Position numbers and translations under genes: made by a program
From: an uncultured Pseudomonadales bacterium
GTDB lineage: Bacteria; Patescibacteriota; Microgenomatia; UBA1400; UBA1396
Length of the DNA stretch: 64,000 nucleotides
NCBI GenBank assembly: GCA_964519905.1
Contig: CAZFLN010000006.1
Span: 4,058 to 68,057 of the forward strand
Direction: 5' to 3'
The notes under the pieces: model-generated
What the model was told of the DNA's origin: nothing
Databases searched by the model: none
Seen by the model: the letters and a program-made list of their open reading frames with translations, nothing else
In this document: positions 5,892 to 63,044 of the stretch, in pieces
Layout: the number at the start of each line of letters is the position of its first letter
Position numbering within the stretch: the stretch's first letter is position 1

Positions 5892-5913
5892 TGTCTGCTG
5901 ATATAATTTATAC

Positions 5914-6393
5914 ATGCACGAAAAAAAACTGAATCTTTACCGCTTTAGTCCCATAGAAAGTGAAGATCAGTTTTTTGAAGCTCTCGAATACATTGTTTCA
6001 GCAGCAGATCAGTTGGCACAAGAAGTTCTTGGAGAATCACTCCCCATCAATACTGTGAAAGTTTTTGCTCATTATTACGATGAGTATAAGTATCTGCTTG
6101 ATCTCGTTTCCAGAATGGGAAATCGTTCGCAGCTGAGCTCAGAGACGAGTTACTATGTTGAGATTGACAAGGAGATTTCAAGACAGGCGATTCAATATCT
6201 TGGAGTGAGGATTGTTGATCCATATCGATTACATGTTGGTTGTGCAGATTATGAGATTCAGAATTACCACGATTTGAAAGATGCTTTTTTGAAAAAAGGC
6301 TCATATGTTCGAAGTATAGAAAATGGAGAGATGCTTGAGCTTTGGCATCCAGACACTGACGTGCTTGGCTATGTTGTTCCACCTTTTGTTTGA
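5914..6393 (+). CDS. hypothetical protein
   Basis: 159-aa ORF; no motif recognised. Confidence 0.4.
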   Translation: MHEKKLNLYRFSPIESEDQFFEALEYIVSAADQLAQEVLGESLPINTVKVFAHYYDEYKYLLDLVSRMGNRSQLSSETSYYVEIDKEISRQAIQYLGVRIVDPYRLHVGCADYEIQNYHDLKDAFLKKGSYVRSIENGEMLELWHPDTDVLGYVVPPFV

Positions 6394-6426
6394 GAGAGAA
6401 TGTTAGGTGATTTGGTGAGGGCACTT

Positions 6427-6700
6427 ACCCAAAGAGTATTTCTCAGGTTTGCTTCACTCCGTTTGCAAACTTATAGTGCACGAACTCTCGGATTTGCATC
6501 AAACCATAGGGTTTCAACCACAAAAAAGGCCGCTTATGCGACCTTTTTTATTGCTGTGAACCACCATTGGGCTGGTTCAAACTTTTTCTCTGATGTTTTC
6601 CAGGCGTTGGAAGACTTCCAAGCCTTCATGCTGAGCCTTGGGGAGGCGTACTCGACCGCTCCGGCTCTAGCTTACTAACTACCCAAACCATAACCCACAC
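6427..6700. repeat. copy 1 of an approximately 270-bp conserved non-coding segment (hairpin plus terminator-like stem with T-run)
   Basis: about 85% identical over the first 100 bp to 13893-13990, with weaker homology continuing to about 6700; internal hairpin aggtttgc...gcaaactt; terminator-like aaaaaaggccgcttatgcgacctttttt at 6522-6549. Confidence 0.6.
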
Positions 6701-6756
6701 CACCTCTGTGAGAAATACCCTTAAAGAGGCGACATGCAATAGTAGGCTAACTCGAT

Positions 6757-8810: not shown

Positions 8811-11513
8811 TCAGCTTATCTCGACGAAACTTGATATTGGGCCCTTAAATACCACACCCGGCAACTGCTCAAAGTGTTTTTTGCCACACGCGATCTTCAT
8901 GAGCTCAGAAGGTCGTAGTTCTTGGTTTTTACTCTTTGTTTCTGCGACGAAGTAAATCTTGGTCTCGTTTTCTAGTATAAATGCCCAGTCAGGGTTATAT
9001 GAGCCAAGAGGAGTTTCGATTTTGAACCAACGCGGCAGTTTGAAGTAAAATTTTACATCAGGATTGCGCTCCAATTCCCCGGCGAAGTTTCTTTCTGGTT
9101 CGGAGTTGTTATCAATAAGAACATGATCGTAAAGCGTTTTTGTCTGATCTTGCACCTCTACCATGCTATTGAGATAACCCCAAAGCTCTTCGTTCTCAAA
9201 ACGCGCCATTTCCCACGCTTCCGACTCCAATTTTTCGTACTTAATACCCTCTACCATCAACTCATGCAGAACATTGATCAAACGCTTTGAAGCTTGATCT
9301 AAAAACTGTTGAGGATTTTTAAGTATTTTGCCAGCAACTTGAGCAGTATTCAAAATAGTGAGAAGTGTTTGCTTTGTTAATCTCGTGCGAGATTGTAAGT
9401 AACTCAAAACATCGGGCACTAGAACTTGCGCAGCGTTGAGGCGTTTCTCACCAGCACGTCGTACCGCTGAGCTCACCCCCTTTTTGTTCATCTCAATGTT
9501 CACGCTTACGACTCTAATGCGAGGGCTTGTTACTTCAATTGATTGAAGTTCTCTAACAGCCCGGTGAACAAGCTCATCTGTGTCATACTCCACGTTATAG
9601 CGGGTGCGATGTTTGATCTTTTCCCAGAGAGCTTGAAATTGTGGGTCAAGGTTATACCCTTTCTTAAGTTGAACACGTCGTTTTTTCTTGGCATTACTGA
9701 TACGTCCAGAAAAGTCGACGCCACATTCTTCCTGAATCTCGTTCTGTAGACCACGAGCGAAGTCATCATAGTGTTCATTAGCAACAACTGTTAGAACAGC
9801 AATGTTTTGATCGGCAACACGTTCTCCCTGTTGGTTAACTGGCAAACGCAGGCCACGACCAATCTCTTGTCGCTTCTTAATATCAGAGCTTGTTTCATTA
9901 AGAGTACAAATTTGGAAAACATTGGGACTATCCCAACCTTCGCGTAAGGTGGAGTGAGAGAAAATAAACTTAAGCGGTGTAGAGAGCGATAGAAGCCGCT
10001 CTTTATCTCTCATGATTAACTCATAGGTATCATCATCTGCCTTAGTTGTCCCGGTTGTGTCCTTGTAATGGCCACTTTTGTCTCTGGAGAAATAGCCATC
10101 ATGCAACGCACTGATAGAATTGTCTTCTTGGCGTAATGAAGCATACTTTGGATTTTGAATCAGTTCTTGATAAAGTTCCTCGAACCAAACAGCATACTTC
10201 CCGGAAGTTATTGTATTGCCTTGATATTGGCGATAATTGTCTACGCGGTCAATGAAAAAGAGTGAAAGTACTTTAATACCAAGTGGCAACAAAGAGAGTT
10301 CTTTTTCGAGGTGATTGGCAATAGTTTGCTTGATTTGGGTTTTAATCAAATCCTCGGTATAACCACCAGTCACTTGCCCGACATAAATCGTTTGTCCATT
10401 GGAAAAGCGAACATACTCGGAAAGAGTATCAATATCGTCAACCACAAAGCCACGGTATGCCTCTCGTTCTCCAGAAAGACTATATAAGTCGCTCTCTACT
10501 TTCACCGATACTGTCTTTTTTTGTACGCCGGTTGGTGTTTGGACATCTATAGCAAGTTTGGCAGAAACGGTACTTCCTTTGCTGCCTACACTGTGCAATT
10601 CAAGATATGCCTGGTTATAGCTTTCTTCTTGAATGACCGAATCAACCTCAATACGTTTTACGAGACCTAAGTCGTAGGCATCAACCGGAGTAAGTTTGTA
10701 AATAAGATTATAGTTATTGCGATGTGTGGCACTGTAGCGCAGGGTACATAAAGGATTCAGGTTTGAAATAGCTTTTTTAGCTTTCTTGGTCTCCATTGAT
10801 TGGGGTTCATCTACGATCACTATTGGATTGGTAGCTTTAATGTATTCAATTGGAGTACCCCAGTCACTATTTCGGTAAAGAATGTTACCGGAATCTTCAG
10901 AATCACGGATAAACGATTGGATGTTCATCACCATGATTTGTAATGAGTTGGCTTTAGCAAAGTTTTTTGTTTGTACGCGATTTTTTGATTCATAGACGTA
11001 AAAATCATGTTTTGGCCGGTCGTAAATAGTGGCAAAATGCTCATCAGTAATTTCTAAGTTTTTAATCACGCCTTCTTTAATGGCTATGCTCGGAACGACG
11101 ATAATGAATTTTTTGAAGCCATAGGCTTTGTGTAGTTCATAAATTGTACGCAAATATACGTAGGTCTTTCCTGTACCAGTTTCCATTTCAAGCGAGAAGT
11201 TAAGCCCATTCTTTAAACTAATAGAATCTGCTTCTCCCGGGAGCATTGATCCAACAAGTCCAGGAGTAAAAAATCCCTCAGATAAAGGAAGTTTGTACTT
11301 CGTTTGTACTTGTTTGGTGTTATCAAAAATTTGCGAATGTTCAAGAACTAGCTTGTTTGATGTGACCAGTTCAAAAAGATCAGCTTGGCCCGAAGATAAT
11401 TCAATATCATTTTCCTGCGTGCTTTCAGTCAATGGTTGACCAGTAAAGAGTTCTACCACTGAGCTAATGGCATCCAATTGATATTGTTGGTTTGGGTCAA
11501 ACTGTAATTTCAT
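8811..11513 (-). CDS. res: Type III restriction enzyme Res subunit (SF2 helicase plus PD-(D/E)xK nuclease)
   Basis: MKLQFDPNQQYQLDAI N-terminus typical of Type III Res; TGTGKT Walker A; VIVDEPQ motif II; C-terminal endonuclease region. Confidence 0.85.
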   Translation of the reverse strand: MKLQFDPNQQYQLDAISSVVELFTGQPLTESTQENDIELSSGQADLFELVTSNKLVLEHSQIFDNTKQVQTKYKLPLSEGFFTPGLVGSMLPGEADSISLKNGLNFSLEMETGTGKTYVYLRTIYELHKAYGFKKFIIVVPSIAIKEGVIKNLEITDEHFATIYDRPKHDFYVYESKNRVQTKNFAKANSLQIMVMNIQSFIRDSEDSGNILYRNSDWGTPIEYIKATNPIVIVDEPQSMETKKAKKAISNLNPLCTLRYSATHRNNYNLIYKLTPVDAYDLGLVKRIEVDSVIQEESYNQAYLELHSVGSKGSTVSAKLAIDVQTPTGVQKKTVSVKVESDLYSLSGEREAYRGFVVDDIDTLSEYVRFSNGQTIYVGQVTGGYTEDLIKTQIKQTIANHLEKELSLLPLGIKVLSLFFIDRVDNYRQYQGNTITSGKYAVWFEELYQELIQNPKYASLRQEDNSISALHDGYFSRDKSGHYKDTTGTTKADDDTYELIMRDKERLLSLSTPLKFIFSHSTLREGWDSPNVFQICTLNETSSDIKKRQEIGRGLRLPVNQQGERVADQNIAVLTVVANEHYDDFARGLQNEIQEECGVDFSGRISNAKKKRRVQLKKGYNLDPQFQALWEKIKHRTRYNVEYDTDELVHRAVRELQSIEVTSPRIRVVSVNIEMNKKGVSSAVRRAGEKRLNAAQVLVPDVLSYLQSRTRLTKQTLLTILNTAQVAGKILKNPQQFLDQASKRLINVLHELMVEGIKYEKLESEAWEMARFENEELWGYLNSMVEVQDQTKTLYDHVLIDNNSEPERNFAGELERNPDVKFYFKLPRWFKIETPLGSYNPDWAFILENETKIYFVAETKSKNQELRPSELMKIACGKKHFEQLPGVVFKGPISSFVEIS

Positions 11514-11518
11514 ATTTG

Positions 11519-13492
11519 TTACACTACCTTGAAGTCAATATCTGCTCGTTCAAGATTGAGAATAGTGTTTGTTTTTAGATCGTCATTATTCGCAAAAACG
11601 CGTTCTAAAAAGATAACCTTTGCAGGTTTTCCTCGTTCGAGAAAATCGATAAAATCTCTGGTAACTGTCCCTTTCAGGCAAACAACCAACTTATTATTTC
11701 CAACAACGAAATATGTCACGCCGGCTTGCTCTGATCGTTTAACAGGTTCAGTGAGTTCGAGGCCAGATTTAAGTATGAGTTCGTACAAGAGATTGCTCTG
11801 GTTAGCATCTGGGCTGGTGTTTTCTACTGAGAGTTTAAGTTGTTGAGTAAGTTGCATTGGATTAACAACAGATTGATTCCAGACTTCGAAGTTACTCGCT
11901 TTGAGTCTAAAAAACTTGACACCGACCTGAGATGCTATTTTTCTAATTCTTTCAATAGATATCTCAGAAATGGTTCTGTACCCCAAACGAAAAGCTTCTG
12001 AGTTTTCATCTATTTTTTCTGGAAGTTGAACCATAATAAAATTTCTATCTTGGCCATCTTTTTCATTTAGTTCTATTAAGGCGTGTGCCGTTGTGGCAGA
12101 CCCAGCAAAGAAGTCCATAACTAAGTCATTCTTACCCGATCCGATACTAATCAGATAGCTGATAAGGTCTTTAGGTTTTGGATAATCAAAAATAATTCCG
12201 TTTTTCTCCAACTCAGAGCGCATTTTCTCTGTTGTTCCAAAGTTCCTTAATACGGACAGGATATTGCGAGCTTTTTCCCTCTCTCTTCTATAATAAAGAA
12301 CACCTTTCTCAGAAAGAAAGAATGACAATCTATCACCGTTATCCATTATCGGGTTACAATTGTTTTCAATAAATTGTTTTAGTTTGTTTACATTAGCCCA
12401 ACCACTAAACAATTTGCACGGCGCAAGTAACTTGCTATTTTTTACAGTGAGTTTACCAATTCTTACTGGGTATGATGCTGACCACTTTTCAGTAATTTGC
12501 CTTGAAATATAGCCAAGCTTCTTCACATCACTGAAATAACCCTCAGGCAGATCAGAGCTTTCTAAACTAATTTCATCTATTGAACATGGGAAACCTATTG
12601 GTAACTCAATCTCGCTTGGTGGATTGGCGGGACCATTTTTTGTAATTGAATTTTCAGCATATCCCTTCCACAAATTACTATCTTTTCTTGTATTAGGATC
12701 AACAACTTGTTCCAATTTAGCCCGGTTGCTATTCTTAGCATAAAGAATGATGTACTCATGGTTTATTTTAACGTCCAGTTGATTGTCAGTATGTCCGTCA
12801 GTGTTCCAGACAAACTGTGTAATAAAGTTTTCTTCCCCAAATATCTCGTCCATTATTATTCTTAGATTGTGGACTTCATGATCATCCATGCTAATAAATA
12901 CCAGTCCGTCTTGTCGAAGCAAATTTCTGGCCAAAAATAATCGGGGATACATCATATTCAGCCAGTCAGAGTGGTAATGCCCGTTATCGCGAGTGTTACG
13001 TCGTAGGGCAGTGTCTTTTAAGAGATCGCCGTTGTCATTGCGTTGGCCAGATTCAGCTTCATAGGTTGTTTTATCTTGCTTGAAATTGTCATTATAAATA
13101 AAATCATTACCGGTGTTATATGGGGGATCAATATAAATCATCTTAATCTTGCCATAATAAGAACGCTGCAATATACGCAAAACTTCTAGGTTGTCACCTT
13201 CTATGAAAAGGTTTTTTGTGGTATCAAAGTTGACTGATTCCTGGGGAAGAGGGGCTAAAGTAGCACTGGTAGTTTTTTGAATTTCCCGGAAAACATTAGA
13301 CTTTCCCGCCCAATTCAATCCATATCTTTCTGTGCCACTGCTTACTTGTTCTCCCAGGGTTTGCTTGAGCTTATCCGGATCAATTTTACCCTCACTGAAT
13401 ACTTCTGGGAATTGTTCCTTCAGTTGTTGGAGTAATTCCTCTTGAGGATTAATTGATTTACCATTCATCTTTGGAGTGTTCATATCACTCAT
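11519..13492 (-). CDS. mod: Type III R-M Mod subunit (N6-adenine DNA methyltransferase)
   Basis: IYIDPPYNTGNDF (DPPY) catalytic motif and conserved EQFPEVF N-terminal region; ORF extends to 13525, start chosen at MSDMNTPK. Confidence 0.85.
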   Translation of the reverse strand: MSDMNTPKMNGKSINPQEELLQQLKEQFPEVFSEGKIDPDKLKQTLGEQVSSGTERYGLNWAGKSNVFREIQKTTSATLAPLPQESVNFDTTKNLFIEGDNLEVLRILQRSYYGKIKMIYIDPPYNTGNDFIYNDNFKQDKTTYEAESGQRNDNGDLLKDTALRRNTRDNGHYHSDWLNMMYPRLFLARNLLRQDGLVFISMDDHEVHNLRIIMDEIFGEENFITQFVWNTDGHTDNQLDVKINHEYIILYAKNSNRAKLEQVVDPNTRKDSNLWKGYAENSITKNGPANPPSEIELPIGFPCSIDEISLESSDLPEGYFSDVKKLGYISRQITEKWSASYPVRIGKLTVKNSKLLAPCKLFSGWANVNKLKQFIENNCNPIMDNGDRLSFFLSEKGVLYYRREREKARNILSVLRNFGTTEKMRSELEKNGIIFDYPKPKDLISYLISIGSGKNDLVMDFFAGSATTAHALIELNEKDGQDRNFIMVQLPEKIDENSEAFRLGYRTISEISIERIRKIASQVGVKFFRLKASNFEVWNQSVVNPMQLTQQLKLSVENTSPDANQSNLLYELILKSGLELTEPVKRSEQAGVTYFVVGNNKLVVCLKGTVTRDFIDFLERGKPAKVIFLERVFANNDDLKTNTILNLERADIDFKVV

Positions 13493-13591
13493 TCTAACAA
13501 CGAACGGCCTGACGTGAAAGCGCAATATGTGTCAAAGTGATATACTTCATAACTTCTTCAAAGCTTTTTAAGCTATAAGTGCAGTTTTTCA

Positions 13592-13614: not shown

Positions 13615-13740
13615 GGTTGTAGACATAATCAAGATTTAATCATTATTTCCTTTTTAAGTAAGCGCTTGTTTGAGATATAACGAGCGGATAAGTTAGTTAT
13701 GACCTAATCCCAGTTTTTCGAAACCGGGTATGGTCAAAAA

Positions 13741-13783
13741 ACCTGAAAGATAAACAACCCTCGCTGAGGAGTATCTTTCAGGT
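13741..13783. other. 12-bp perfect inverted repeat (acctgaaagata...tatctttcaggt) with 19-nt loop
   Basis: seen directly; lies between the mod gene and the att repeat. Confidence 0.4.
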
Positions 13784-13873
13784 CATGTCAGGAAACTGGC
13801 ATGCGTGGCAATACGGTACTCGGCGGGGGCTTTTTGCCACTCCCAAACGAGTCGCCTCGAACCTTACGATACT

Positions 13874-13892
13874 TGTGACCCCACGGAGATTC
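13874..13892. repeat. attL: 19-bp direct repeat identical to the tRNA-Glu 3' end
   Basis: tgtgaccccacggagattc is identical to 24009-24027; flanking bases differ. Confidence 0.8.
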
Positions 13893-14145
13893 ACCCCAAG
13901 AGTATTTCTCAGGTTTGCTTCACTCCGTTTGCAAACTTGAAGTGCACGAACTCGCGACTTCGTATCAAACCATGAGATTTCAGCTACAAAAATAGTCGCT
14001 CAGGCGACTTTTTTTGTACCTGTGACCCAAAGGGTTTGGGATTGGAACCAGATTCTTCGTGATCTGGTCGACCTGTTCGACACCTTCCGCCAAGACGTAA
14101 TGCTACCTGATGTTAAGTACTCCGTCTAGGGAATAGAACCGGTGT
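13893..14145. repeat. copy 2 of the approximately 270-bp conserved non-coding segment with intrinsic terminator
   Basis: homologous to 6427-6700; perfect terminator agtcgc-tcag-gcgact plus T7 at 13984-14006. Confidence 0.6.
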
Positions 14146-14149
14146 AATA

Positions 14150-17100
14150 CTATCCCCATTTAGTAGCATGGAGCTCTGCCTCTTGATCTTCTCTGACGGC
14201 TTCACGGGCATAAGAATCAGCGATAGCTTTCAGAATCGAAGCTGTTATTGGCCAGTCAGGTGCTACATTTTCGCTCATCTCCTGATATTTTTCGGCAAGA
14301 GATCTTTCTTGAGTTCCACCATCATACGGACCACGTGTGGTAACGCCTCGGTTATTGTAAACGTAGCTTTGGATGTGCCGATTAATTACGCTGTTGTCGA
14401 GTTCTTCTATGATCTTTCTTGCCGCTGTGTGTGGCCAGCAACCATCAGTATCATATGGCGTCTTTGCTAGCACGCTTGCTAATTCCAAGTCGCAACCGGT
14501 TGTGAGACTCTGCTCGGCACAAGATTTTCTGGCAGTTTCAACCCAAGTAGATAGCTCCTTCGCGTCAAGAGCCCCTTCTTCATTTGTTCCAGGAAATCCT
14601 TCCCAAGAATCAAGTACGTTTTTTGCATTTCTCGCCAAGTTACTGGATTGATCAGAATTAAGACCCGCATGTTTCGGGTTGGCCTTCCTATCGTCCCTTT
14701 TGTAAACCATGCCGACAAGGTCACAAAAGAATGCCGGATCTTTTTCGAGCAGCTTGTGAATCGAGAAGGATGTTCTTTCGTTGTCCCTCATTCCTCGGAA
14801 AAGCGACGCGCAAGGCCATTCCAGCTTAGCAATCTCTTCATCCGTGAGTTCTTTGCGCTCTTGCAGCTGCCTGAAAACGTTGGATAGGTAATATTCGGTC
14901 ATGCTGTCTGCATGGCGATCTTCAGAGGGAATGGCAAGTAAATCGAGAATAATTTGTCGGAGCAGATTGCTTGGCAATGAAACAACATGATCGCCGGCGA
15001 TTTCCAATGCTGCCTGAGGTCGTTTGGCGAGAAGAAACTTTTCAGCGGCAATTTGCGCGTTCTCGTTCGAGTGACCTGGCGTATAACCTCTGGCATGTTT
15101 CCAGTATTCTGCTTCAAGATCAATTCCAGCTTTTTCGACTTTCAACCAAGTATCTGGCCCTTCAGGGAGTCCAAGATATAGTTGCGCTGCGATCTCTGGT
15201 GTGTAAATGCCCTCATCTTTCAGTTTTTGGATAGCCGCTTCAACCCAAGCCACACCTTCTTTTTCTGTTCTTCCCCAAGAATAGGAAGAGATAAGCAGAT
15301 GGTTTTTTGCGTGTTTGGCAAAGAAGAAGAGTACTCGATCGTCCTCTTCTTCATTCTTGATGGCTTTTCCCAGCGCTTGTCCCAAAACTCCAACGTATGA
15401 AATACCTGAAGAAAACTTGACGATCTCTTCAAGTGGTACTTTGTCTAGTACTTCTCTGGCAGCTTTTCCTCTTTGTACCGCAACTTCTTTGTCACCATCG
15501 GTCCGATCTCTACGACTCACCTCAGGCAAGTGTGGCCACGGATTATCTAGCAACCAACCAACTCGATCGAGTACATACTCTGGAGTAAATTTGGTGAGTA
15601 GCTTTTTGAGCGGCATGAGGTTCTTCCGCTCGGGCTTTTCGCCGTAACTACTAAGCCAATTCATTGCTTCCCGAATATGTGAACAGAGGAGTTTTACTTC
15701 ATCAGGTGAGAGTTGGTCTTTGTCCATTTGGGTGAGAGTATTCATGAGAGCGGTTTGAATGTAATCTGGAAGGCGAGTAAATTCGTCCATAGCGTCAAGG
15801 ATGTTTACTCTTGTGCACGCCAAACTCTCAAGTCTATTGACCAATTCTTTCTGATATTCCTGTGGATTTGTTTCCGGATCAAAGCCAGACCTCAAGATGC
15901 CGTAGTCCCGCCATCTGAAACGATACGCTTCAGTGAAGTGGCCCCCTGAATGATAAGACTTAGTAAAATTCCAAACGAGCTTTGCATCTTTTGATATGAG
16001 CCTGTCAATCTCTCGTATTCTTTCTGGTGCCGCTGCATAAGTTTGAGGCCAGATGGGCATGAAGATATCTGTCAAACTGTTTGCCGGTCGATTGCTGTAT
16101 CTTCCCCCTGTGTCAATTGCGGCCATTCCTCTGAGAATTTCCACTGCACGAGAGAAATATGTAGAACTCCATGCAAGCGCTTCTAGTGCCCAAAGCAACC
16201 CACTGTGATTGCAGTCTCCAAACGGGCCGCCGTCATCGTCTTTCATCAAGTCAGAAAAAACTTGAGGATGCTTGGCAAGTTGTTTGCGTACCACTTCCAG
16301 AAAAACGTCGGGCGCTGCTTCTGCTAACAGTGGGGAAATATCCTTGAGTGAGGCCCAATGCTCCATTGTGGTCGCGGCCTCCAAAACCTCAGCTACGGTT
16401 TGATTGATCGTATCTTGAAGAGAAACGAGATTTGTCGCTCGGTCTCCCAATACTGAAACCATTGCCAGAGAGCCACAAAGTCCTTCCCTCAGCCAGTCGG
16501 AATGTAGTGGGGCTTTACCATAAACGGCTGCAGCCCATCGCTGATCAGCGGGTAGCTCATATTTAGGATCTTTTTTCAGCAAGACATCCTTCACGACCTG
16601 CTGATACCTCTGAAATATCGCCTCGTCGACATAGCGAGCAATGAGAAACCATGTGTCAATCGGTGACTTCAATACCCAAACATTTCCAACCTTGAGCAAT
16701 GGCGGATCTGCCACTGTTAACAGGTTCCCCAGCTCTGAAAGATAATCCGTATACTTTTTACTAGCGATATATTCAACGATTTGTTGGTCTCCATCTTTCT
16801 TTTCATTCCATGCACCAATGAAAAGAACGGGTAAAAGCAAGTGAGTGTTTTGAGGATTCACCCAAGGTGGATCTGTTATAGCTGGTGAAGGCGACATACG
16901 ACGTCTCAAAACTGGTAGACTCCTGCCGGAATCTCTGGAAAGTTTTCGGGCCTCAACCTCTCCAACACCGATTTTTTTAAGATTCTCCTGAATAGTGCCA
17001 ATAAGTGGTCGAGGAAGGCGCCCAGCATCTCGCGTACTTGAAACGTTTGTTCCTGTACCCAGGAAGACATGATGGCCCTTTCTTACGGCCAAACCTACTA

Positions 17101-17932
17101 AATCATTGCACTCGATCGTTACGGCCAAGATGAGCGAGGTTTGGTATGTATCAAGAATATGTCGTAGATCAGCGGGGTTCTCGACGTAAAGACTTTTGGA
17201 GAGTGAGCGCAATCTCTCGTCATCTGGTAGTCTGGAGAAAGAACTGTATAGAAAAGCAAACGGTTCGTCAGCAGAATCACCTTGAAGCGACAGAATAGCA
17301 GGTGGCTTGTTGAGCCAGCCATGAACAATCTCTACATGATTGTCTCTTCCACCCAGCACAACTTCAGCCGAAAGTGGTGGGTTTGTTGATTCCGACCATT
17401 CTTCCCAAAAGCTCTCCAAGCTCCGTATTCCGCCTGCGCTCGCCTTTCCCAGGCGTTTGGCAAGCCATAAACCCACGGCAGGCGCCTGATCGAGCCAGAG
17501 TGCAAGGTCATCGGCATCGATAGCCCTTACTGATTTCCAATGGTTGGATGCAGCCTTGCTGGTTGCCCACTCATGTCGTTTTGGCCAACGTCGTGGCGTT
17601 ACAAAAACGAAAGATGTATCTTTGGGTGTCAGAGCCAACGAGTCAGCGACCCTTTTCGTGTAATCATCGTCAGCTTTTTTCTTGGGCGACTCCTTTGTGC
17701 CCATTTCCCAACCAGAAACGCCATCAGGGAGATAGGGGGATGATGATGCAATGTTCAACCTGCCGTCCCATCCGGGAGTTGCCACACTGTCTTGTTCAGG
17801 GAAAGAAACTTCACTAACAGAATTAGCTGTTGCCAAAACAAGGCGTCGTAGGAGTTGGGGCAAAAAAGAGGCGCAATCTCTTTGATTACTTTCACTCCAA
17901 GACTTGATATCACCGGCACTTATCCATTGCAT
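14150..17932 (-). CDS. 1260-aa protein of unknown function (island cargo)
   Basis: long uninterrupted ORF; no Walker A/B, no HxH, no obvious catalytic signature; weak D...ExxxK pattern (GWDGRL...WEMGTK) in the first 90 aa. Confidence 0.6.
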   Translation of the reverse strand: MQWISAGDIKSWSESNQRDCASFLPQLLRRLVLATANSVSEVSFPEQDSVATPGWDGRLNIASSSPYLPDGVSGWEMGTKESPKKKADDDYTKRVADSLALTPKDTSFVFVTPRRWPKRHEWATSKAASNHWKSVRAIDADDLALWLDQAPAVGLWLAKRLGKASAGGIRSLESFWEEWSESTNPPLSAEVVLGGRDNHVEIVHGWLNKPPAILSLQGDSADEPFAFLYSSFSRLPDDERLRSLSKSLYVENPADLRHILDTYQTSLILAVTIECNDLVGLAVRKGHHVFLGTGTNVSSTRDAGRLPRPLIGTIQENLKKIGVGEVEARKLSRDSGRSLPVLRRRMSPSPAITDPPWVNPQNTHLLLPVLFIGAWNEKKDGDQQIVEYIASKKYTDYLSELGNLLTVADPPLLKVGNVWVLKSPIDTWFLIARYVDEAIFQRYQQVVKDVLLKKDPKYELPADQRWAAAVYGKAPLHSDWLREGLCGSLAMVSVLGDRATNLVSLQDTINQTVAEVLEAATTMEHWASLKDISPLLAEAAPDVFLEVVRKQLAKHPQVFSDLMKDDDGGPFGDCNHSGLLWALEALAWSSTYFSRAVEILRGMAAIDTGGRYSNRPANSLTDIFMPIWPQTYAAAPERIREIDRLISKDAKLVWNFTKSYHSGGHFTEAYRFRWRDYGILRSGFDPETNPQEYQKELVNRLESLACTRVNILDAMDEFTRLPDYIQTALMNTLTQMDKDQLSPDEVKLLCSHIREAMNWLSSYGEKPERKNLMPLKKLLTKFTPEYVLDRVGWLLDNPWPHLPEVSRRDRTDGDKEVAVQRGKAAREVLDKVPLEEIVKFSSGISYVGVLGQALGKAIKNEEEDDRVLFFFAKHAKNHLLISSYSWGRTEKEGVAWVEAAIQKLKDEGIYTPEIAAQLYLGLPEGPDTWLKVEKAGIDLEAEYWKHARGYTPGHSNENAQIAAEKFLLAKRPQAALEIAGDHVVSLPSNLLRQIILDLLAIPSEDRHADSMTEYYLSNVFRQLQERKELTDEEIAKLEWPCASLFRGMRDNERTSFSIHKLLEKDPAFFCDLVGMVYKRDDRKANPKHAGLNSDQSSNLARNAKNVLDSWEGFPGTNEEGALDAKELSTWVETARKSCAEQSLTTGCDLELASVLAKTPYDTDGCWPHTAARKIIEELDNSVINRHIQSYVYNNRGVTTRGPYDGGTQERSLAEKYQEMSENVAPDWPITASILKAIADSYAREAVREDQEAELHATKWG

Positions 17933-18003
17933 ACGGCATCATTCTAGTCCCAATTTTCCCCGAAGTGAATCAGTAATGTTGTGCATCAAAACTGTGTAAA
18001 ATC

Positions 18004-18381
18004 TTGAGTATGCGCGTAAAACGAGGGAGACCATCCCTTCTCACGGAATCTGTCCAAAATCAATTAAAACAAGCGTTTCTGGTCGGCGCAACCGACGACG
18101 AAGCTTGTTTAGTGGTGGGAATTGCCCCAAGCACACTCTATAAATTCCAGGAGAAAAACCCGTCATTTTCGGAGCAAAAACGACTATGGAAGCGTTCTCC
18201 AGTTTTTCGCGCCAAGGCGACGATCGTCCGCAATCTCGACAATGTCGATGTGGCCAAGTGGTACTTGGAACGTAGAGCCAAAGATGAGTTTTCGACAAAA
18301 CACGAGTTGGAAGGGATTTCCGACAATACACCAATCCAAGTAATATTTAGGGGAAAAGATGAAGACAAGGCAAACGTTTAG
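18004..18381 (+). CDS. HTH protein resembling phage terminase small subunit
   Basis: KRGRPSLLTE...GATDDEACLVVGIAPSTLYKFQEKNPSFSEQ matches the conserved N-terminal pattern of P27-type TerS and related HTH proteins. Confidence 0.5.
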   Translation: MSMRVKRGRPSLLTESVQNQLKQAFLVGATDDEACLVVGIAPSTLYKFQEKNPSFSEQKRLWKRSPVFRAKATIVRNLDNVDVAKWYLERRAKDEFSTKHELEGISDNTPIQVIFRGKDEDKANV

Positions 18382-18635
18382 AAATTCACAAGATCATTGA
18401 GCGTTTTGCCCAAGGCCTTGGCGATCTTCCACAAGACAAAAACGGTTGGATGATACTTCCCGGCTTCAAGATGAGCGACGTATGCGGAATGAAGCTTGGC
18501 TCTACCGCCCAGCTCTTCCTGTGAGATACCTTTGCTTTTCCGAGCGTCACGAATATTACCAGCTAATCTTTGGGTGAATTCTTTACGGACTTTGGTGTTG
18601 TCTCCGTCTGTTTCAGGGAGATTTATCGTATTCAT
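18378..18635 (-). CDS. XRE-family HTH transcriptional regulator
   Basis: KGISQEELGGRAKLHSAYVAHLEAGKYHPTVFVLWKIAKALGKTLNDL is a classic Cro/C1-type HTH; start taken at MNTINLP (ORF extends to 18767). Confidence 0.7.
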   Translation of the reverse strand: MNTINLPETDGDNTKVRKEFTQRLAGNIRDARKSKGISQEELGGRAKLHSAYVAHLEAGKYHPTVFVLWKIAKALGKTLNDLVNF

Positions 18636-18708
18636 TTCAACAATTATTTTCCTGGTGATTAGAGGCTTACGCCATGGCGTAGTCATCAAGTTAGTGATAT
18701 GATCTCTG

Positions 18709-19590
18709 GTGATGAAGAAGACCAAAAAAGCATTCGCCCACGGTGTGAATTGGAAATCTCGGCCCATTCAGTTACGGGCAGGTTTCTTAATTCTTGTCCT
18801 CTCGCTCATTCTCTACAAAGCAGTTCCCGGAGTGGTTCGTGCCTACGACGTTCAAAAGGTAAACCAAGCCATTCAGGAAGCCGAGACATTGGCAAAAGCA
18901 GGACAAACCGAGGAAGCTGTATTGGTACTCCAATCTACGTCCTCCCGATACATGACCCAAGAACAGGCGGAGAAAATCACCTCTCAGTTTGGTGAGTTGG
19001 CAAACCCACCGGCCAAAGGTATGAGCTTCGATGATTTCGATCAAATGTTGAAAGATCGAGGAGAACCAGGAATCTTAGGCTCACCTGCGCCAAAACCGTC
19101 ACAGGTACCAAAGCAAATACCAACGCCCTTACCCACAGCGCTTCCAACCGTAAACGCCAATCCACAAGTGCGCTGCTATTACGACAGTCGCTGCGGTGGT
19201 ACGAAGATCACAACCAAAGACGAATGCCTGAATACTACCTGTTGCTATGACGGTTCAACTTGGAACATTAAATCGAAGACGGATTGCCAGAAACAATCGG
19301 ACGAGGCGGCTCAAAAACAACTCGACGCCTGGAATACATCGCAATCCCAGATGCAGGCCGAAATTGAAGCCCTACAGAAGGCCACGGAAACCATTACTCA
19401 ACAAAACGCTCAAACCCAAGCTGAGCTTCTCGAGGCATGTCGACAGCAAGCACAAAAAACCTATGCGCAACCGGCACAAGGGAGTCAAACTTCCACAACT
19501 GGTTACGTTGTTGGTGAATCACCGGAGCAGCGACAAAAGCTTAATCAAGCTATGCAGCGTTGCCTGGATCTGTATGGAGGAGGACAATGA
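18709..19590 (+). CDS. membrane-anchored, Cys-rich, Q-rich secreted protein
   Basis: N-terminal TM (FLILVLSLILY); Pro-rich linker; 8 Cys in 60 aa; divergent from the XRE gene. Confidence 0.45.
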   Translation: MMKKTKKAFAHGVNWKSRPIQLRAGFLILVLSLILYKAVPGVVRAYDVQKVNQAIQEAETLAKAGQTEEAVLVLQSTSSRYMTQEQAEKITSQFGELANPPAKGMSFDDFDQMLKDRGEPGILGSPAPKPSQVPKQIPTPLPTALPTVNANPQVRCYYDSRCGGTKITTKDECLNTTCCYDGSTWNIKSKTDCQKQSDEAAQKQLDAWNTSQSQMQAEIEALQKATETITQQNAQTQAELLEACRQQAQKTYAQPAQGSQTSTTGYVVGESPEQRQKLNQAMQRCLDLYGGGQ

Positions 19591-19826
19591 AAAAGTCGCA
19601 CCTCCTATTCATCGCAGTTGCTCTGTTGGCGTATTATCTGGGATATCGTTCAGGAATCGGCAACCAGGTGGCTCGATATGGCGATACTGGGTTGCCAAAG
19701 AATTGCCGGGCGCTAATTGCCACCAACATCAGTGGTTTTAAGTATAGCCAGTACACCGCAGAGGAAGCGCTTTACTCTATCGACCGTAACTGTGGTCCAG
19801 CTGGGCTTATTTGGAATGAACGATGA
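19587..19826 (+). CDS. small membrane/secreted protein
   Basis: GGAGGAGG RBS then ATG overlapping the upstream stop (ATGA); signal-like MKKSHLLFIAVALLAYYLG. Confidence 0.4.
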   Translation: MKKSHLLFIAVALLAYYLGYRSGIGNQVARYGDTGLPKNCRALIATNISGFKYSQYTAEEALYSIDRNCGPAGLIWNER

Positions 19827-19831
19827 TGCAT

Positions 19832-20596
19832 TCAAGCTATTTTGCCACCGACTTCTTTCCACAATTCTTGTAAACCATTTTTTACTTCTTCTGTCGTTTC
19901 CACTTCATTTGACAAGAGTAAGGCAATTTTCAAACATGCTCCATAGGAAACCATGATGCCCATATGCAAATCCAACTCTGCATAACCGTCGAGTGTGATT
20001 TGTGCCAGGTGGCCAAGAATATCACTGGGTGATGTGTGATTTTTTCTATTACCAGCAATATATATCTTAAAAAGGGTTTGCATTTCGGTTTTAGGGATGA
20101 CTTTCTCCTGAACAAGCCAAGCTACTACTTGTTCCACGCTTTGGCCAGCCCAATTATGGCGGCCATTTTTCAACTTAGCCGGAATGGCATCATATGAGTC
20201 ATTGATCCTTTTTATTTCCTCTGGTTCGATTTCTACACCTGCTGACAGTAAAAAATCCATGTCTTCTTTTTGTTCTACTGCATCAAATTGGATGAATTGC
20301 CGTGAATACGCTTCTTTTCCCTTCTTTTCAATATAAAACATATAGACCATATCCTCTAAAATCCTTCTTGATAGGTCGAGAATAGAGCCGCTGTACACAG
20401 TGCGCAGAGAGGGATCTTCTTCTGCCAGATTGGCCAAAGTGATACTGGTCTGGAGAGTTAAATAATCCTTCCGAAATACCCCCTCAAGGACTCTTCCAAA
20501 GAGGGATTTATACGTGTTTGGTCCTGTTGCCAAGGGGTAGCTAATATCAAGTAGCTGGAGGGATTTTTTACGAAAATCGACTTGTGATTTTTCCAT
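19832..20596 (-). CDS. hypothetical protein
   Basis: 254-aa ORF; no motif recognised. Confidence 0.45.
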   Translation of the reverse strand: MEKSQVDFRKKSLQLLDISYPLATGPNTYKSLFGRVLEGVFRKDYLTLQTSITLANLAEEDPSLRTVYSGSILDLSRRILEDMVYMFYIEKKGKEAYSRQFIQFDAVEQKEDMDFLLSAGVEIEPEEIKRINDSYDAIPAKLKNGRHNWAGQSVEQVVAWLVQEKVIPKTEMQTLFKIYIAGNRKNHTSPSDILGHLAQITLDGYAELDLHMGIMVSYGACLKIALLLSNEVETTEEVKNGLQELWKEVGGKIA

Positions 20597-20640
20597 TGAG
20601 AGGATTATACTCCGGCGTACGGACAGTCAGGTTCAGATAT

Positions 20641-22128
20641 ATGGCAAATTATTGGAGCAACGAGCTTTTAGGAAGGTATGACCCGCAAGATGGTTGGCTT
20701 GGGATTGATTATCGACGGCACTTTCTAAATCCACACCAAACAATGATGACTTACATCCATGAACAAGCCCACGGCATACTTTGCAACGGTACTGAATATG
20801 GGCAGGCAACGAAGACGCTTCTACGATTTCTTCCGCATGCAACAGCAATGTCTGAGGAGCAACGCGCCGCCATCTTTAAGAAACTTCATGATTCACAGTT
20901 TTATGTTCAGGAGGCAGCAGCAACTCTTGCTCCAATTTTTGGGCTGAGAGATGCCAAAGGTCCGGCGGTTGCACGCAAATGGGCCAAAGACAATTTGCCA
21001 GATGATTACTACAACCGTGTTGAGGGGCTTTTTTTTGCGTTGGAATTTGGAGCAAGATACAGAGAACTATTCCTACAACAATCATCGCATTTAGCGATGC
21101 ATACGAAGATTCGTAAAGATGTTGTTGCTTACGATCTACTAAGAAACCCTGAACAATTTATCGACTATTTGTCCCAACCAGATAATATTCCTAGTGACAG
21201 GTTTCAAAAACTTACACAGGCATTTTGGGCTAAGCCCCATCTACCAACTCGCTCAGATGAAGAAGTAGCAAAGCATGCCAACCTACCCCTTTTCGAAATC
21301 TTGACCAAAGATGAAGTCGCAAACTTCCTCAACTATGTTGCAGAGTTTTGTGGACTACCAGTTCGAACTGATGCAACACGCATAAAAGATCCATTGACAC
21401 CAGAAGCTCACGTAAAAGAACTGGCAGAAAACGTTCTTATCGCGAATATGAATTTCAACTTACCTGACCGTGCTATGTGGCTTAAACAAACAGATGATTT
21501 GAAATTTATTTCTGACAAAGTTGATGCGGTTATTATCAACAGAGTCGATCCTTCATCCAACCTCGCTGATAATTTCAAGATTGTTATGGGGCGAGAAGCT
21601 GACCTTGGAATTATTACATTCCAAAAAACGGGCGAAGTATATTTAACAGGTTTGTCTGAAATGGAAGCATCAACAATCCTTAAGCAAGAGTTAAAAAATG
21701 CGACACTTATCACCAAGTGGGGGTTATATGAGCCCGGAAATGAAAACGTTTCTTTCTTCCCAAGTATCCGTCGACCAGATGTAGTTATTTACAACACACT
21801 TGGCGACATGCGCGTGTCAATGCAAAAGTATTTGGAGCAACATGACTGTGTTTGCTTCAATGCCCAAGCTTCTCCAGGAAGCCCGATACATACTTTTGTG
21901 ATCGTAGATCAGAAAGGTACTCTTCATATGTTGAACGCCATGGGAGTTCAACCGATAAACTCCTTTTTGTCTGATAACAAAGAACATCTGCATGTTGTTC
22001 AGCCAGATCAATCAACCGTTAATCCAGCCCACTACAACAATGTCCTTTCTGTTTGGAATGACTTGCCATGGGATGTCGATTGGTATGCCTCCATGCTTGA
22101 TGGTGAAAATGTAATTAATCGCACCTAA
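20641..22128 (+). CDS. HExxH-motif protein (possible metallopeptidase)
   Basis: YIHEQAHGI near the N-terminus; start at MANYWSN within ORF 20584..22128. Confidence 0.5.
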   Translation: MANYWSNELLGRYDPQDGWLGIDYRRHFLNPHQTMMTYIHEQAHGILCNGTEYGQATKTLLRFLPHATAMSEEQRAAIFKKLHDSQFYVQEAAATLAPIFGLRDAKGPAVARKWAKDNLPDDYYNRVEGLFFALEFGARYRELFLQQSSHLAMHTKIRKDVVAYDLLRNPEQFIDYLSQPDNIPSDRFQKLTQAFWAKPHLPTRSDEEVAKHANLPLFEILTKDEVANFLNYVAEFCGLPVRTDATRIKDPLTPEAHVKELAENVLIANMNFNLPDRAMWLKQTDDLKFISDKVDAVIINRVDPSSNLADNFKIVMGREADLGIITFQKTGEVYLTGLSEMEASTILKQELKNATLITKWGLYEPGNENVSFFPSIRRPDVVIYNTLGDMRVSMQKYLEQHDCVCFNAQASPGSPIHTFVIVDQKGTLHMLNAMGVQPINSFLSDNKEHLHVVQPDQSTVNPAHYNNVLSVWNDLPWDVDWYASMLDGENVINRT

Positions 22129-22288
22129 GTTACACTTGTAAGCAATTTTGGTAACAAAATCCTGATTCAGACCCCATTTATTCCAGCAGTTTTTGCGATA
22201 ATTTCTTGTGTTGACAGATCAATCAATTTGCTCGTTTTCATTCCAATTCACACACGGTGTAAATTGACGTATATATCAATCTTTTCTG

Positions 22289-22318
22289 TTGACACCAATG
22301 GTATGCGGATGGTTATAT
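22289..22318 (+). promoter_or_regulatory. sigma70-like promoter (TTGACA-18-TTATAT) for the small-ORF/recombinase operon
   Basis: ttgaca 22289-22294, 18-nt spacer, ttatat 22313-22318. Confidence 0.45.
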
Positions 22319-22337
22319 TCGGACTAGGAAATCTACC

Positions 22338-22496
22338 GTGACCATCGCAAAAGCAAGAAAATTACTGGGAAAATCGGCGGAGCTGCTGACTGATGAACAG
22401 GTGCAGCTCAAAATTGACGTGGCTGAGCAGCTGAAGGAGTTGTTCTTTGATTTTTTGCTCAAGAGTTTAAGACAGAAAAAGGCATACCAATCTTGA
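22338..22496 (+). CDS. 52-aa small protein (GTG start) upstream of the serine recombinase; homolog of 62859..63044
   Basis: AGGAAA 6 nt upstream of GTG; IAKARKLLGKSAELLTDEQVQLKIDVAEQLKEL aligns with IEKAQAILRKSKHSFSDDQTERLIDVMEKFSSAI. Confidence 0.4.
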   Translation: MTIAKARKLLGKSAELLTDEQVQLKIDVAEQLKELFFDFLLKSLRQKKAYQS

Positions 22497-22503
22497 GGAA
22501 ACT

Positions 22504-24048
22504 ATGAAATACTTGGGTCCGATGCGAAAAAGAGTTGTTATATACATCCGAGTATCAGACCCTGGTCAAATCGATAACAATAGCCTTGAAACTCAAGAGA
22601 AATACTGTCGTAAAAAAGCCAGTGAAATGGGCGCTGAAGTTGTTGAGATATTTCGAGAGGAAGGTGTCTCTGCAAAGACAATTGACAAAAGGCCGGAACT
22701 GAGGCGACTTCTACAGTTTTGTAGCCTCAAAAAGAATGATATTCAAGCAGTTATTGTGTATAGACTGGACAGGTGGTCGAGAAATGTAACCGATGCATTG
22801 CAGGCAAAGTTTCTCCTTGCCAAGTATGGTGTTCAGCTTATTTCGGCAACTGAAGGCATAACAGACGATCCTCAAGGCGAATTTCTTGGAACGATCACTT
22901 TCGCTATGGCTCAGCTCGACAATCAACTCAAGGCCGCACGCGTCTCAGATAACATGAAGACTATGTTTCGAAATGGTTTGTGGCCATGGAAGGTCCCACC
23001 TGGTTATAAACGTCCATTCAAAACCAAAGAGGAAAGCAAAGGTAAACCAGCCATAATCGACCCCGACATCGGTCCAATTCTTCATGAGCTGTTTGTTGAG
23101 GCATCCAAAGGGATTTTTTCCAGGAAACAACTTGCTGAAAAGACAAATTTACTTGGATACGCGGATTTCAAAGGGAGGAAAATCAATGAAAAGGTAATCG
23201 TTGACATTCTTTCTGACACCTTTTACCACGGGCTTATGCATGCGCCGAGATGGGATGAGTACGCTGTCGGTTTGCATGAACCCCTGATTGATGAACTCAC
23301 TTGGAAAAAGGCGTATGCTTCAGTAATTAAGAAGCGAAAATATATGTATCAAGATACTGTGGATTACCCACTCAAGGGCACGATCAAGTGTGAGCTTTGT
23401 GACCACTTCATGACCTCGAGCAATCCCAGAGGGCGGACCAAGAACTACAAGCATTACGAATGTGGGAATCCAAAATGCCGTCGGTCACGTATCCTGGCGT
23501 CTTCAGCACATGAGCAGTTTGCATCCATTCTTTCCCGGGTCAAACCCGCTCCAGACGTCATGGTGTTGTTTACGGATATGGTATTTTCCGAATGGGATTC
23601 AGTGGTGAGTACCGTTGCGACACTCACTCAAACATTGGACAAGAGAATTGCCGACCAAAAAAAAGAACTCGATAGGATCAGTAGGTCTTGTGACCGAGGT
23701 ATATATACAGAGGCTGAGGCCAAGGAAAAAGCTGATGAAGTACGTCGAGAAATCACTATCTTGGAGGTTGAAAAAACTGACTCAGTGATAGCTGGATACG
23801 ATGCCAAGATCGTCAAGGCGTTTACCGAAAGATTCCTTGAACACTTTGACGAACTATGGAAACAACTTGATCTGCCCAAGCAGCAAGCTCTCCAGGTGAA
23901 AATATTTCCCAACGGTATCTTGTGTGACAAAAACAAGAATATTCGAACCGCAGAAATGAGCGAATGCTTCCAGCTAATTGAGGCTCTTGGAAGCGAAAAT
24001 GTCGAAAATGTGACCCCACGGAGATTCGAACTCCGGTTACCAGGATGA
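22504..24048 (+). CDS. large serine recombinase (integrase)
   Basis: VVIYIRVSDPGQ resolvase catalytic Ser region plus recombinase domain plus Cys-rich zinc-ribbon (CELCDHF...CGNPKC) plus coiled coil; last 38 nt overlap the tRNA-Glu gene. Confidence 0.85.
   Translation: MKYLGPMRKRVVIYIRVSDPGQIDNNSLETQEKYCRKKASEMGAEVVEIFREEGVSAKTIDKRPELRRLLQFCSLKKNDIQAVIVYRLDRWSRNVTDALQAKFLLAKYGVQLISATEGITDDPQGEFLGTITFAMAQLDNQLKAARVSDNMKTMFRNGLWPWKVPPGYKRPFKTKEESKGKPAIIDPDIGPILHELFVEASKGIFSRKQLAEKTNLLGYADFKGRKINEKVIVDILSDTFYHGLMHAPRWDEYAVGLHEPLIDELTWKKAYASVIKKRKYMYQDTVDYPLKGTIKCELCDHFMTSSNPRGRTKNYKHYECGNPKCRRSRILASSAHEQFASILSRVKPAPDVMVLFTDMVFSEWDSVVSTVATLTQTLDKRIADQKKELDRISRSCDRGIYTEAEAKEKADEVRREITILEVEKTDSVIAGYDAKIVKAFTERFLEHFDELWKQLDLPKQQALQVKIFPNGILCDKNKNIRTAEMSECFQLIEALGSENVENVTPRRFELRLPG
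24009..24027. repeat. attR: 19-bp direct repeat (tRNA-Glu 3' end)
   Basis: identical to 13874-13892. Confidence 0.8.
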
Positions 24049-24083
24049 GAACCTGGCGTCCTAGGCCTCTAGACGATGGGGCC
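24011..24083 (-). tRNA. tRNA-Glu (anticodon CTC)
   Basis: reverse complement folds as GGCCCCA acceptor, GTCTAGAGGCCTAGGAC D-arm, CCAGG-TTCTCAT-CCTGG anticodon arm, CGGAG-TTCGAAT-CTCCG T-arm, discriminator A; CCA not encoded. Confidence 0.85.
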
Positions 24084-30430: not shown

Positions 30431-30748
30431 AGGTTTGTTTAGACGTTCGCGTAGCTCTTTTTGGAGTTATGAGGAAAGTCCGGACAGCAGAACGCAGGGT
30501 GCCAAGTGAAAGCTTGGGGGCATGGCAACATGCAACAGTGAGAGCCACAGAAACGATCCGGGTAACGCCGGCTGAAACGCCAAGTGGTCCTTCATCGAGA
30601 GATGAATGAGGCAATCCTCCCCGCTGCAACCGCCGATTTTCACCGTGTTGGATGCGTTCCCAGCTGCTTTTGCAGCCGGTGATAAGGTTGCGGGCATCAG
30701 AGAAATGAACGTCCCCGACAGAATCTGGCTTATCGAACAGACCTCAGT
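30431..30748 (+). ncRNA. rnpB: RNase P RNA (bacterial type, reduced length of about 318 nt)
   Basis: GAGGAAAGTCCGGAC P4 5' strand; ACAGAATCTGGCTTATCG P4 3' strand; P1 pairing aggtttgtt/aacagacct; TATAAT at 30416-30421; hairpin terminator at 30754-30781. Confidence 0.8.
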
Positions 30749-62627: not shown

Positions 62628-62858
62628 TTAGAAGAAAGTTGGTCTCAAAATTAGATTCACGCTCATTGACATTCTATTACTTTTATTGCGATACACAGAT
62701 ATATTTGCATATTTTGTTGTGTAATTGGTTGCTATAATGGCAATACGCAAAAAAGTTATTGCTAGCCACTCTGAGTGAGCTAAATCCTTCGGTACGGTGC
62801 CGAAGTCAAACAACAGTTCCGTAGTTATTTCTACTTGCGTTAGAAAGCTACGGTTGTT

Positions 62859-63044
62859 GTGAGACAAAGTTCAATTATCTCTATTGAAAAAGCCCAGGCA
62901 ATACTGCGTAAGAGCAAGCACAGTTTTTCAGATGACCAAACAGAGCGTCTGATTGATGTGATGGAAAAATTTTCTTCCGCAATTATCGACAAAATCGACT
63001 CCAAAAAAGAATCGGTTCCCCATTTGGCGGAGCGGAAAACTTAG
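62859..63044 (+). CDS. 61-aa small protein (GTG start) upstream of the second serine recombinase; homolog of 22338..22496
   Basis: about 35% identity over 36 aa (KA..L..KS....D.Q...ID....) with the small ORF preceding the first serine recombinase. Confidence 0.4.
   Translation: MRQSSIISIEKAQAILRKSKHSFSDDQTERLIDVMEKFSSAIIDKIDSKKESVPHLAERKT

Follow-up and report, generated by a model that had tools for sequence, protein, structure and literature searches.

A family of small proteins encoded directly upstream of large serine recombinases, and its possible role in recombination

Finding the recombination directionality factor (RDF) is the bottleneck in making reversible genome-engineering tools from serine integrases. 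The stretch of DNA analysed here, called the window below, is 64,000 nucleotides long and contains exactly two genes for large serine recombinases (LSRs), named LSR1 and LSR2. Directly in front of each lies a small open reading frame (ORF). The question is whether these two ORFs are genes at all, whether they belong with the recombinases, and what their product might do there.

A preliminary description of the window took the two ORFs to be homologous. It proposed that they encode a conserved, co-transcribed partner of serine integrases, which could be an RDF or a regulatory factor. The coordinates of the features involved are collected in Table 1.

Table 1 Features discussed in the text. Positions are those of the window, except where a locus is named.
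Feature	Position	Strand	Details
attL core GTGACCC	14022-14028	+	Left homology boundary with L001 at 14022
Post-attL tail	14022-14129 (including the core)	+	35 in-frame codons and a stop, VTQRVWDWNQILRDLVDLFDTFRQDVMLPDVKYSV
Cargo, 1260-aa protein	14150-17932	-	No Pfam match
Probable XRE-type helix-turn-helix regulator	18378-18767	-	Position-equivalent genes in L001 and L162 carry HTH_31/HTH_3
Cargo, 293-aa protein	18709-19590		No Pfam match
Cargo, DUF5677 protein	19832-20596	-	Pfam
Cargo, 514-aa protein	20584-22128		No Pfam match
Conserved non-coding block	22180-22288	+	TTCCAATTCACACACGGTGTAAATTGACGTATATATCAATCTTTTC; repeats TTGACAGATCAATCAAT / TTGACGTATATATCAAT; nearly invariant against L001 and L162
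Promoter-like site	22289-22319	+	-35 TTGACA (22289-22294), 19-nt spacer, -10 TATATT (22314-22319)
Small ORF 1	22338-22496	+	GTG start, 52 aa, short form, MTIAKARKLLGKSAELLTDEQVQLKIDVAEQLKELFFDFLLKSLRQKKAYQS
LSR1 Shine-Dalgarno GAGGA	22495-22499	+	Overlaps the TGA stop of small ORF 1 (22494-22496); sequence inspection
LSR1	22504-24048	+	514 aa in the integrated form; Pfam domains and coiled coil
attR core GTGACCC	24010-24016		LSR1 codons 503-505; end point of the homology with L001 and L162
tRNA-Glu (CTC)	24010-24083	-	Integration target; ARAGORN and Rfam
Small ORF 2	62859-63044	+	61 aa, divergent family member
LSR2	63065-64000, cut by the window end	+	Resolvase domain seen
Coupling-protein ORFs	L094:126-2762, L091:75-2768, L147:32-2797, L025:42-2678	-	Domain scan

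The small protein and its family

Compared with each other by BLASTP, the products of small ORF 1 and small ORF 2 are 34% identical over 38 amino acids, with E=2e-6 for this single comparison. A profile made from other loci finds both window copies and nothing else there, small ORF 2 with E=7.9e-9. The proposed homology holds on both counts. Given the reciprocal linkage with LSRs and the dN/dS values below, the similarity is far beyond chance. As described earlier, each ORF is located 5' of an LSR on the same strand; the gaps had been given as 8-20 nt, but they measure 7 nt and 20 nt. The sequence AGGA is found 8 nt 5' of small ORF 1. For small ORF 2, a GTG is the sole canonical start. No match to the exact small ORF 2 is on record, and the contig that holds the neighbouring gene ends at the same place as the window's LSR2.

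Comparing the window copy with that of L001, a related locus, yields a dN/dS of 0.02 (11 synonymous differences, 1 non-synonymous). In other pairs with measurable dS, values range from 0.12 to 0.44. A ratio near 1 would be expected of a frame that is not conserved as protein; the range of 0.02-0.44 indicates purifying selection instead. The small ORF is a real protein-coding gene, and not a chance ORF.

What the members share is a core of about 38 residues, I-x-K-A-R-K-I-L-G-x-x-A-x-x-h-S-D-E-E-h-x-x-x-I-x-x-A-E-h-L-K-x-L-F-F, which is conserved in more than 150 loci. A word-index search with the 52-aa peptide alone delivers just one near-identical protein, on a JGI contig, which also stands before an LSR. 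The family surfaced only via the LSR loci and an iterated profile, and not through this first search. With a threshold of E<=1e-3, an exhaustive profile search over 1.84 billion representatives, clustered at 50% identity, gives at least 474 clusters; 321 of them also pass E<=1e-10.

Members are stand-alone proteins of about 50-156 aa. The best 150 listed clusters are 62-156 aa long, with a single matched stretch and no fused domain, and no natural fusions of the small protein to an LSR were found. None of the 366 matches in a set of 5.8 billion proteins has a Pfam domain, and the ones that are named at all are called 'hypothetical protein'.

The family comes in two forms. The short form, which is the one present in the window, is 50-66 aa long and is found with LSRs that share 40% identity or more with LSR1. 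The long form, at 80-145 aa, is found with LSRs that are around 30% identical to LSR1. At its N-terminus it has an additional variable region that closes with LFPEQ, and at its C-terminus the motif WLDDFERxIFxGKTLxELLHEKG. The long form is strongly acidic (median pI 4.6, net charge -8 to -10), whereas Lys/Asn-rich tails make the short form basic (pI 9.4). The core common to both is acidic to neutral.

AlphaFold2 models of both forms are all-helical, without strands. The 52-aa protein from the window has two helices, at residues 3-16 and 19-51 (pLDDT 92), and a long-form member has four (pLDDT 84.5).

Searches for known relatives came back empty. Pfam, NCBIfam and PHROGs hold no match to the small protein at E<=0.1-1, and this includes the XisH/XisI families of Pfam. 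A structure search with both models finds no significant match in PDB or BFVD. Scans of GenBank phages, PLSDB plasmids (by tblastn) and IMG/VR find no homologue. As to winged-helix excisionases, there is no Pfam match to HTH_17 or Excisionase-like, and no beta-hairpin wing in the models. No helix-turn-helix (HTH), RHH or other DNA-binding fold was detected, nor a chaperone-like one, nor any likeness in sequence or fold to a known RDF or excisionase. A literature search found no paper that describes the family, or LSR modules in Patescibacteria. Judged by these searches, the small protein belongs to no described family.

A likeness to calmodulin and centrin (PDB profile E of at least 6e-4; Foldseek E of at least 3) covers only the helix-linker-helix between EF-hands. 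The protein is not an EF-hand: the 12-residue Ca2+-binding loop (DxDxDG...E) is absent from the family alignment.

Pairing with the recombinases

LSR1 has the canonical LSR architecture in a domain scan, with a catalytic domain, DBD1, DBD2 and a coiled coil. The Pfam scan reports Resolvase (E=6.5e-31), Recombinase and Zn_ribbon_recom, and the coiled coil is at 374-420. LSR1 and LSR2 are only 24% identical. At E<=1e-20, LSR1 has 246 homologues; few of these come with a source name, and those are labelled Patescibacteria. Where homologues are longer, the extra length is at the C-terminus and not at the N-terminus.

Linkage was measured from both sides. For the LSR side, loci were fetched with an alignment of LSR homologues (80 fetched; counts are over 81). 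The profile of the small protein started from three peptides and was refined in rounds against every six-frame ORF in these loci, where it converged on 76 of the 81. All matches are on the strand of the LSR, directly upstream, ending at the LSR start, and there are zero matches elsewhere in the loci. The five misses were inspected by eye. One is a copy truncated by the contig end, three are divergent copies, and one locus (L056) is without the ORF. In the opposite direction, 80 metagenome loci were sampled by way of the small protein.

The idea that homologues always precede serine recombinases can therefore be stated in numbers: the small gene is directly 5' of the LSR and on its strand in 80 of 81 LSR-sampled loci, and an LSR is immediately downstream in 78 of the 78 small-protein-sampled loci that have enough downstream sequence. 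The pairing persists across LSRs that are only 24-30% identical. Further homologues with the same linkage, on which the original proposal depended, thus exist in quantity, as the clusters from the profile search attest.

The two genes are not merely adjacent. The small-ORF stop and the LSR start overlap in 58 of 75 loci. The distance between them is -4 (ATGA) in 32 loci, -14 in 11 and -8 in 5, where it should be kept in mind that LSR starts were assigned automatically, and that single spacing values may be off. The widest gap among the 75 loci is 20 nt. In L162, another locus related to that of the window, the TGA of the small ORF overlaps a GTG that aligns with the LSR1 start in the window. 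The overlaps, together with the promoter upstream of the small ORF described below, support the earlier suggestion that it is expressed along with the LSR.

One locus hints at something wider. In L005, a 76-aa ORF (7130-7360, minus strand) overlaps the start of a second, more distant LSR (5497-7149, 550 aa). It has an 'LTDQEA' motif, a resemblance seen by eye only, and the family profile misses it. The C-terminus of this LSR also consists of tRNA-antisense residues, a feature that returns below. Going by this ORF, the pairing of a small ORF with an LSR may extend beyond the detected family.

Upstream regions and the integrated element

Small ORF 1 is preceded by a promoter-like site. This had been described as TTGACA-18-TTATAT, a form that is weaker than claimed, with a -10 that fits the consensus at only 3 of 6 positions. 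The same -35 with a different -10, as TTGACA-19-TATATT, is the better reading. In a three-way alignment, TTGACA and TATATT are conserved in L001 and L162, and the spacer has diverged. A promoter scanner makes no call at this site; the spacers it allows are 16-18 nt only. Conservation extends further upstream. Homology to L001 restarts at 22180, after unrelated cargo, with a non-coding block that is presumed to be a regulatory region, and a block of around 50 nt 5' of the -35 is conserved in the window, L001 and L162.

Long-form loci have a more regular arrangement. Of their 99 distinct upstream regions, 83 contain the pattern TTGAC-N(17-18)-TA(T/A)ACT, which has a background frequency of 1.2%. 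Over this near-consensus promoter lie two 20-bp palindromes (ACTA-N12-TAGT), one in the spacer, the other running from the -10 into the leader. In L082-L161 and L025-L081, promoter and palindromes are about 20-75 nt 5' of the small ORFs. Leaders are short, with a median of 31 nt from the end of the -10 to the ATG, and a Shine-Dalgarno sequence is absent from most of these small ORFs. Given the upstream promoter and palindromes, the small ORF opens an operon that is under tight regulation. Among 27 short-form upstream regions, a TTGACA-type promoter is found in 3 (the window, L001 and one misclassified locus), and the other 24 are without one.

The palindromes vary between loci and agree within a locus. 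Such a match would imply a dimeric DNA-binding protein that is specific to the element and co-evolves with its sites. The LSR itself was considered for this part and rejected, as the P-arms beside the tRNA junction share no convincing motif.

Two short hairpins (cttcgg...ccgaag and ccgtag...ctacgg) are found at 62770-62850, just 5' of small ORF 2. This region contains no tRNA and has no Rfam match. About 1 kb further 5' of the hairpins is a gene for a XerC-like tyrosine recombinase (60869-61780).

Small ORF 1 and LSR1 are part of an element of roughly 10 kb, 14022-24016, located at the 3' end of a tRNA-Glu. Its boundaries come from the comparison with L001, and the small ORF is inside them, between attL at 14022 and attR at 24010. 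The window and L001 are homologous over 14022-19586 and 22180-24019, and the cargo in between differs. The genes for the DUF5677 protein and the 514-aa protein are replaced in the L001 copy by a different gene, so the cargo beside the integration module is variable. No tRNA was detected at the insertion site of the L001 copy. The element also carries the probable XRE-type gene, whose product is a candidate repressor of the operon of small ORF and LSR.

The attachment site has an unusual position. In the integrated state, the last 10 codons of LSR1 run antisense through tRNA-Glu (within 24010-24048). At the other end of the element, attL is followed by 35 codons that carry on the LSR frame and match the tail that is joined to the LSR in an un-integrated relative (P0003/L162). 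This places attP inside the LSR1 gene. Related tails are present on P0051, P0076 and P0102; in most other listed homologues, the final residues are tRNA-antisense ones (VTPxGxEPxLxG). Integration thus swaps the last 35 or so residues of LSR1, and excision would restore the conserved tail. A separate thought was that this tail, in its attP form, imitates helix 2 of the small protein; hhalign assigns this a probability of 0.4%, and it was discarded.

The module travels in different kinds of elements. Many long-form loci have a divergent upstream ORF of 836-921 aa, and the 4 that were scanned are all coupling proteins of type IV secretion (TrwB_AAD_bind, TraG-D_C). This suggests that such loci belong to Patescibacteria elements of the integrative conjugative type. 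In some short-form loci, the upstream neighbour is instead a gene for a terminase small subunit (GP3_package).

Possible roles and known systems

Our main reading is that the small protein is an accessory factor that binds the LSR, probably an RDF, and that its translation is coupled to that of the LSR. We put the probability of this at about one half. From the context of the gene we infer the label of RDF or regulator, and likewise that the protein physically contacts the LSR and affects directionality.

The gene for the small protein and the LSR gene after it form a two-gene operon, the integration and excision module of Patescibacteria mobile elements, among them conjugative, prophage-like and cargo-island types. 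The first gene yields a small alpha-helical protein whose translation is coupled to that of the recombinase. In the scheme that we favour, this protein would attach to the LSR with which it is paired and control which way, or how actively, recombination runs, like an RDF. With the operon derepressed, the element could then leave the tRNA site through attL x attR recombination.

Several observations point to an RDF. The RDFs of LSRs are small, encoded on the element, structurally unrelated to each other and without a common motif, and they dock on the DBD2 and coiled coil of the LSR (PMC12286644). The LSRs paired with the small protein have this docking region. The long-form protein is acidic and has no detected DNA-binding fold, and its acidity would suit binding to protein rather than to DNA. 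The layout of the genes also resembles that of classical xis-int operons.

Other observations argue against it. An RDF that is obligatorily co-translated would bias the enzyme to excision, unless there is another switch. Neither the charge, as noted, nor the C-terminal motifs are the same in the short form as in the long one. Finally, the locus-specific palindromic operators leave room for a regulatory role.

The bias to excision could, speculatively, be resolved by the tail exchange. Small protein and LSR might together work as a self-contained switch that reads the state of the element, integrated or free, an idea to which we give a slim chance. The free circle would encode an LSR with the tail of some 35 residues, the integrated element an LSR without it and with a tRNA-antisense end. 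The small partner would promote excision only with the tail-less LSR. With the tail present, the partner would be neutralised or redirected, and the free element would integrate. Direction would then be set by the C-terminus that is encoded in each state, and not by the timing of RDF expression.

The same facts can be read without any effect on direction. Obligatory coupling implies a fixed ratio of small protein to LSR in every state, and the near-absolute linkage in both directions, with no fusions and no independent occurrences, is also what one would see if the small protein were a cofactor, subunit or chaperone for LSR folding, DNA binding or synapsis, or else a labile inhibitor. Against such a rather unlikely function stands that characterised LSRs integrate without a cofactor (PMC12286644). 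The partner LSRs moreover have the full canonical domain set, and the small protein shows neither a chaperone-like fold nor a DNA-binding one. The last point weighs as well on the notion of an autoregulator that would act on the palindromes of its own promoter and, in conjugative elements, on the divergent coupling-protein gene too. Here the match of long-form palindromes within a locus does call for an element-encoded, co-evolving dimeric binder, the clade of the window keeps a highly conserved block 5' of the -35, and the short form is basic. However, precisely the proteins encoded beside the palindromes are strongly acidic, as is the core. The protein is also retained where 24 of 27 short-form upstream regions lack the promoter in question, and the probable XRE-type HTH gene of the element is a more obvious source of an operator binder. 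This makes autoregulation distinctly unlikely.

Finally, the peptide might have no function, and the ORF might be a leader that acts purely in cis by delivering ribosomes to the LSR start. Such a leader would explain the overlaps of stop and start, and in the window also the Shine-Dalgarno sequence of LSR1 that overlaps the small-ORF stop. It is hard to square with a 38-residue core that is conserved across LSRs as diverged as these, with the low dN/dS values or with confident AlphaFold2 models. The candidate hairpin that would mask the ribosome-binding site of LSR1 is also no more stable than shuffled sequence (z=0.54). A pure leader is therefore barely credible.

Small accessory proteins of site-specific recombinases are as such a known kind, to which this one would belong. 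The new part is a large family, defined by sequence, that is strictly syntenic with a serine integrase gene and overlaps it.

If the small protein is indeed an RDF, the obvious comparison is with the RDFs of other LSRs. These are normally expressed apart from the integrase, since an RDF inhibits integration. Examples are SprB of SPbeta, Orf7 of TP901-1, Xis of phiRv1 (Rv1584c) and the RDF of a Listeria integrase. Like these, the protein described here is small and shares a mobile element with an LSR that has DBD2 and a coiled coil. Some known RDFs are only helical and act via protein-protein contact, which fits an acidic helical protein. It differs from them in that no likeness to any known RDF could be detected, in sequence or in structure. 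The gene order differs too. LSR RDFs 'do not show consistent synteny' with their integrases (PMC12286644), in contrast to the strict synteny of this family, which is immediately upstream of the LSR and mostly overlaps its start. An obligatory coupling to the integrase is atypical among known LSR RDFs.

The arrangement looks more like that of tyrosine recombinases. In lambda, xis overlaps int, and Tn916 also has a xis-int operon; such operons have a regulated promoter. In sib retroregulation of lambda, the att site is beside the 3' end of int, and what follows downstream differs between the integrated and excised states. Here, likewise, a small gene lies directly upstream of the integrase gene and overlaps it, and att is at the 3' end region of that gene. 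The differences are that the recombinase is of the serine family, and that the small protein has no winged-helix fold or Pfam match. In addition, att is inside the integrase coding sequence and alters the protein itself.

Another precedent is from Anabaena, where the LSR XisF needs the small accessory proteins XisH and XisI for excision of its element. These share with the present case that small accessory proteins go alongside an LSR, a role that is only proposed for the protein described here. It has no Pfam match, and size, fold and gene arrangement differ.

An attP inside a gene has also been seen before, in the repressor gene of mycobacteriophage BPs and in SSV1, where integration splits the integrase gene. 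There too, an attP in coding sequence means that the integrated and free forms encode different C-termini. In the present case the remodelled gene is that of a serine integrase, only the last 35 or so residues are exchanged, and the replacement residues are coded antisense to a tRNA. That integration rewrites the integrase's own C-terminus is an unusual arrangement.

If the family is the cognate partner of these LSRs, such partners could be identified by position alone. This would make available hundreds of natural pairs of LSR and partner, whose att sites are mappable at the 3' ends of tRNA genes. The pair of small ORF and LSR also defines the module with which conjugative and other mobile elements integrate in Patescibacteria, the ultra-small bacteria of the CPR. 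To our knowledge, almost no genetic tools exist for these organisms.

The surroundings of the element contain some further features. A second exact copy of the tRNA-Glu 3' end, GTGACCCCACGGAGATTC, is found at 13875-13892, 130 nt left of attL, where none is expected by chance; it may be the relic of an earlier integration or of a decayed element. Just left of the element is a LOOT RNA (Rfam RF03000, 77.8 bits) at 13701-13815, flanked by a type III restriction-modification pair (N6_N4_Mtase; ResIII with RE_endonuc) at 8811-13525. A bacterial RNase P RNA of class A is located at 30431-30748.
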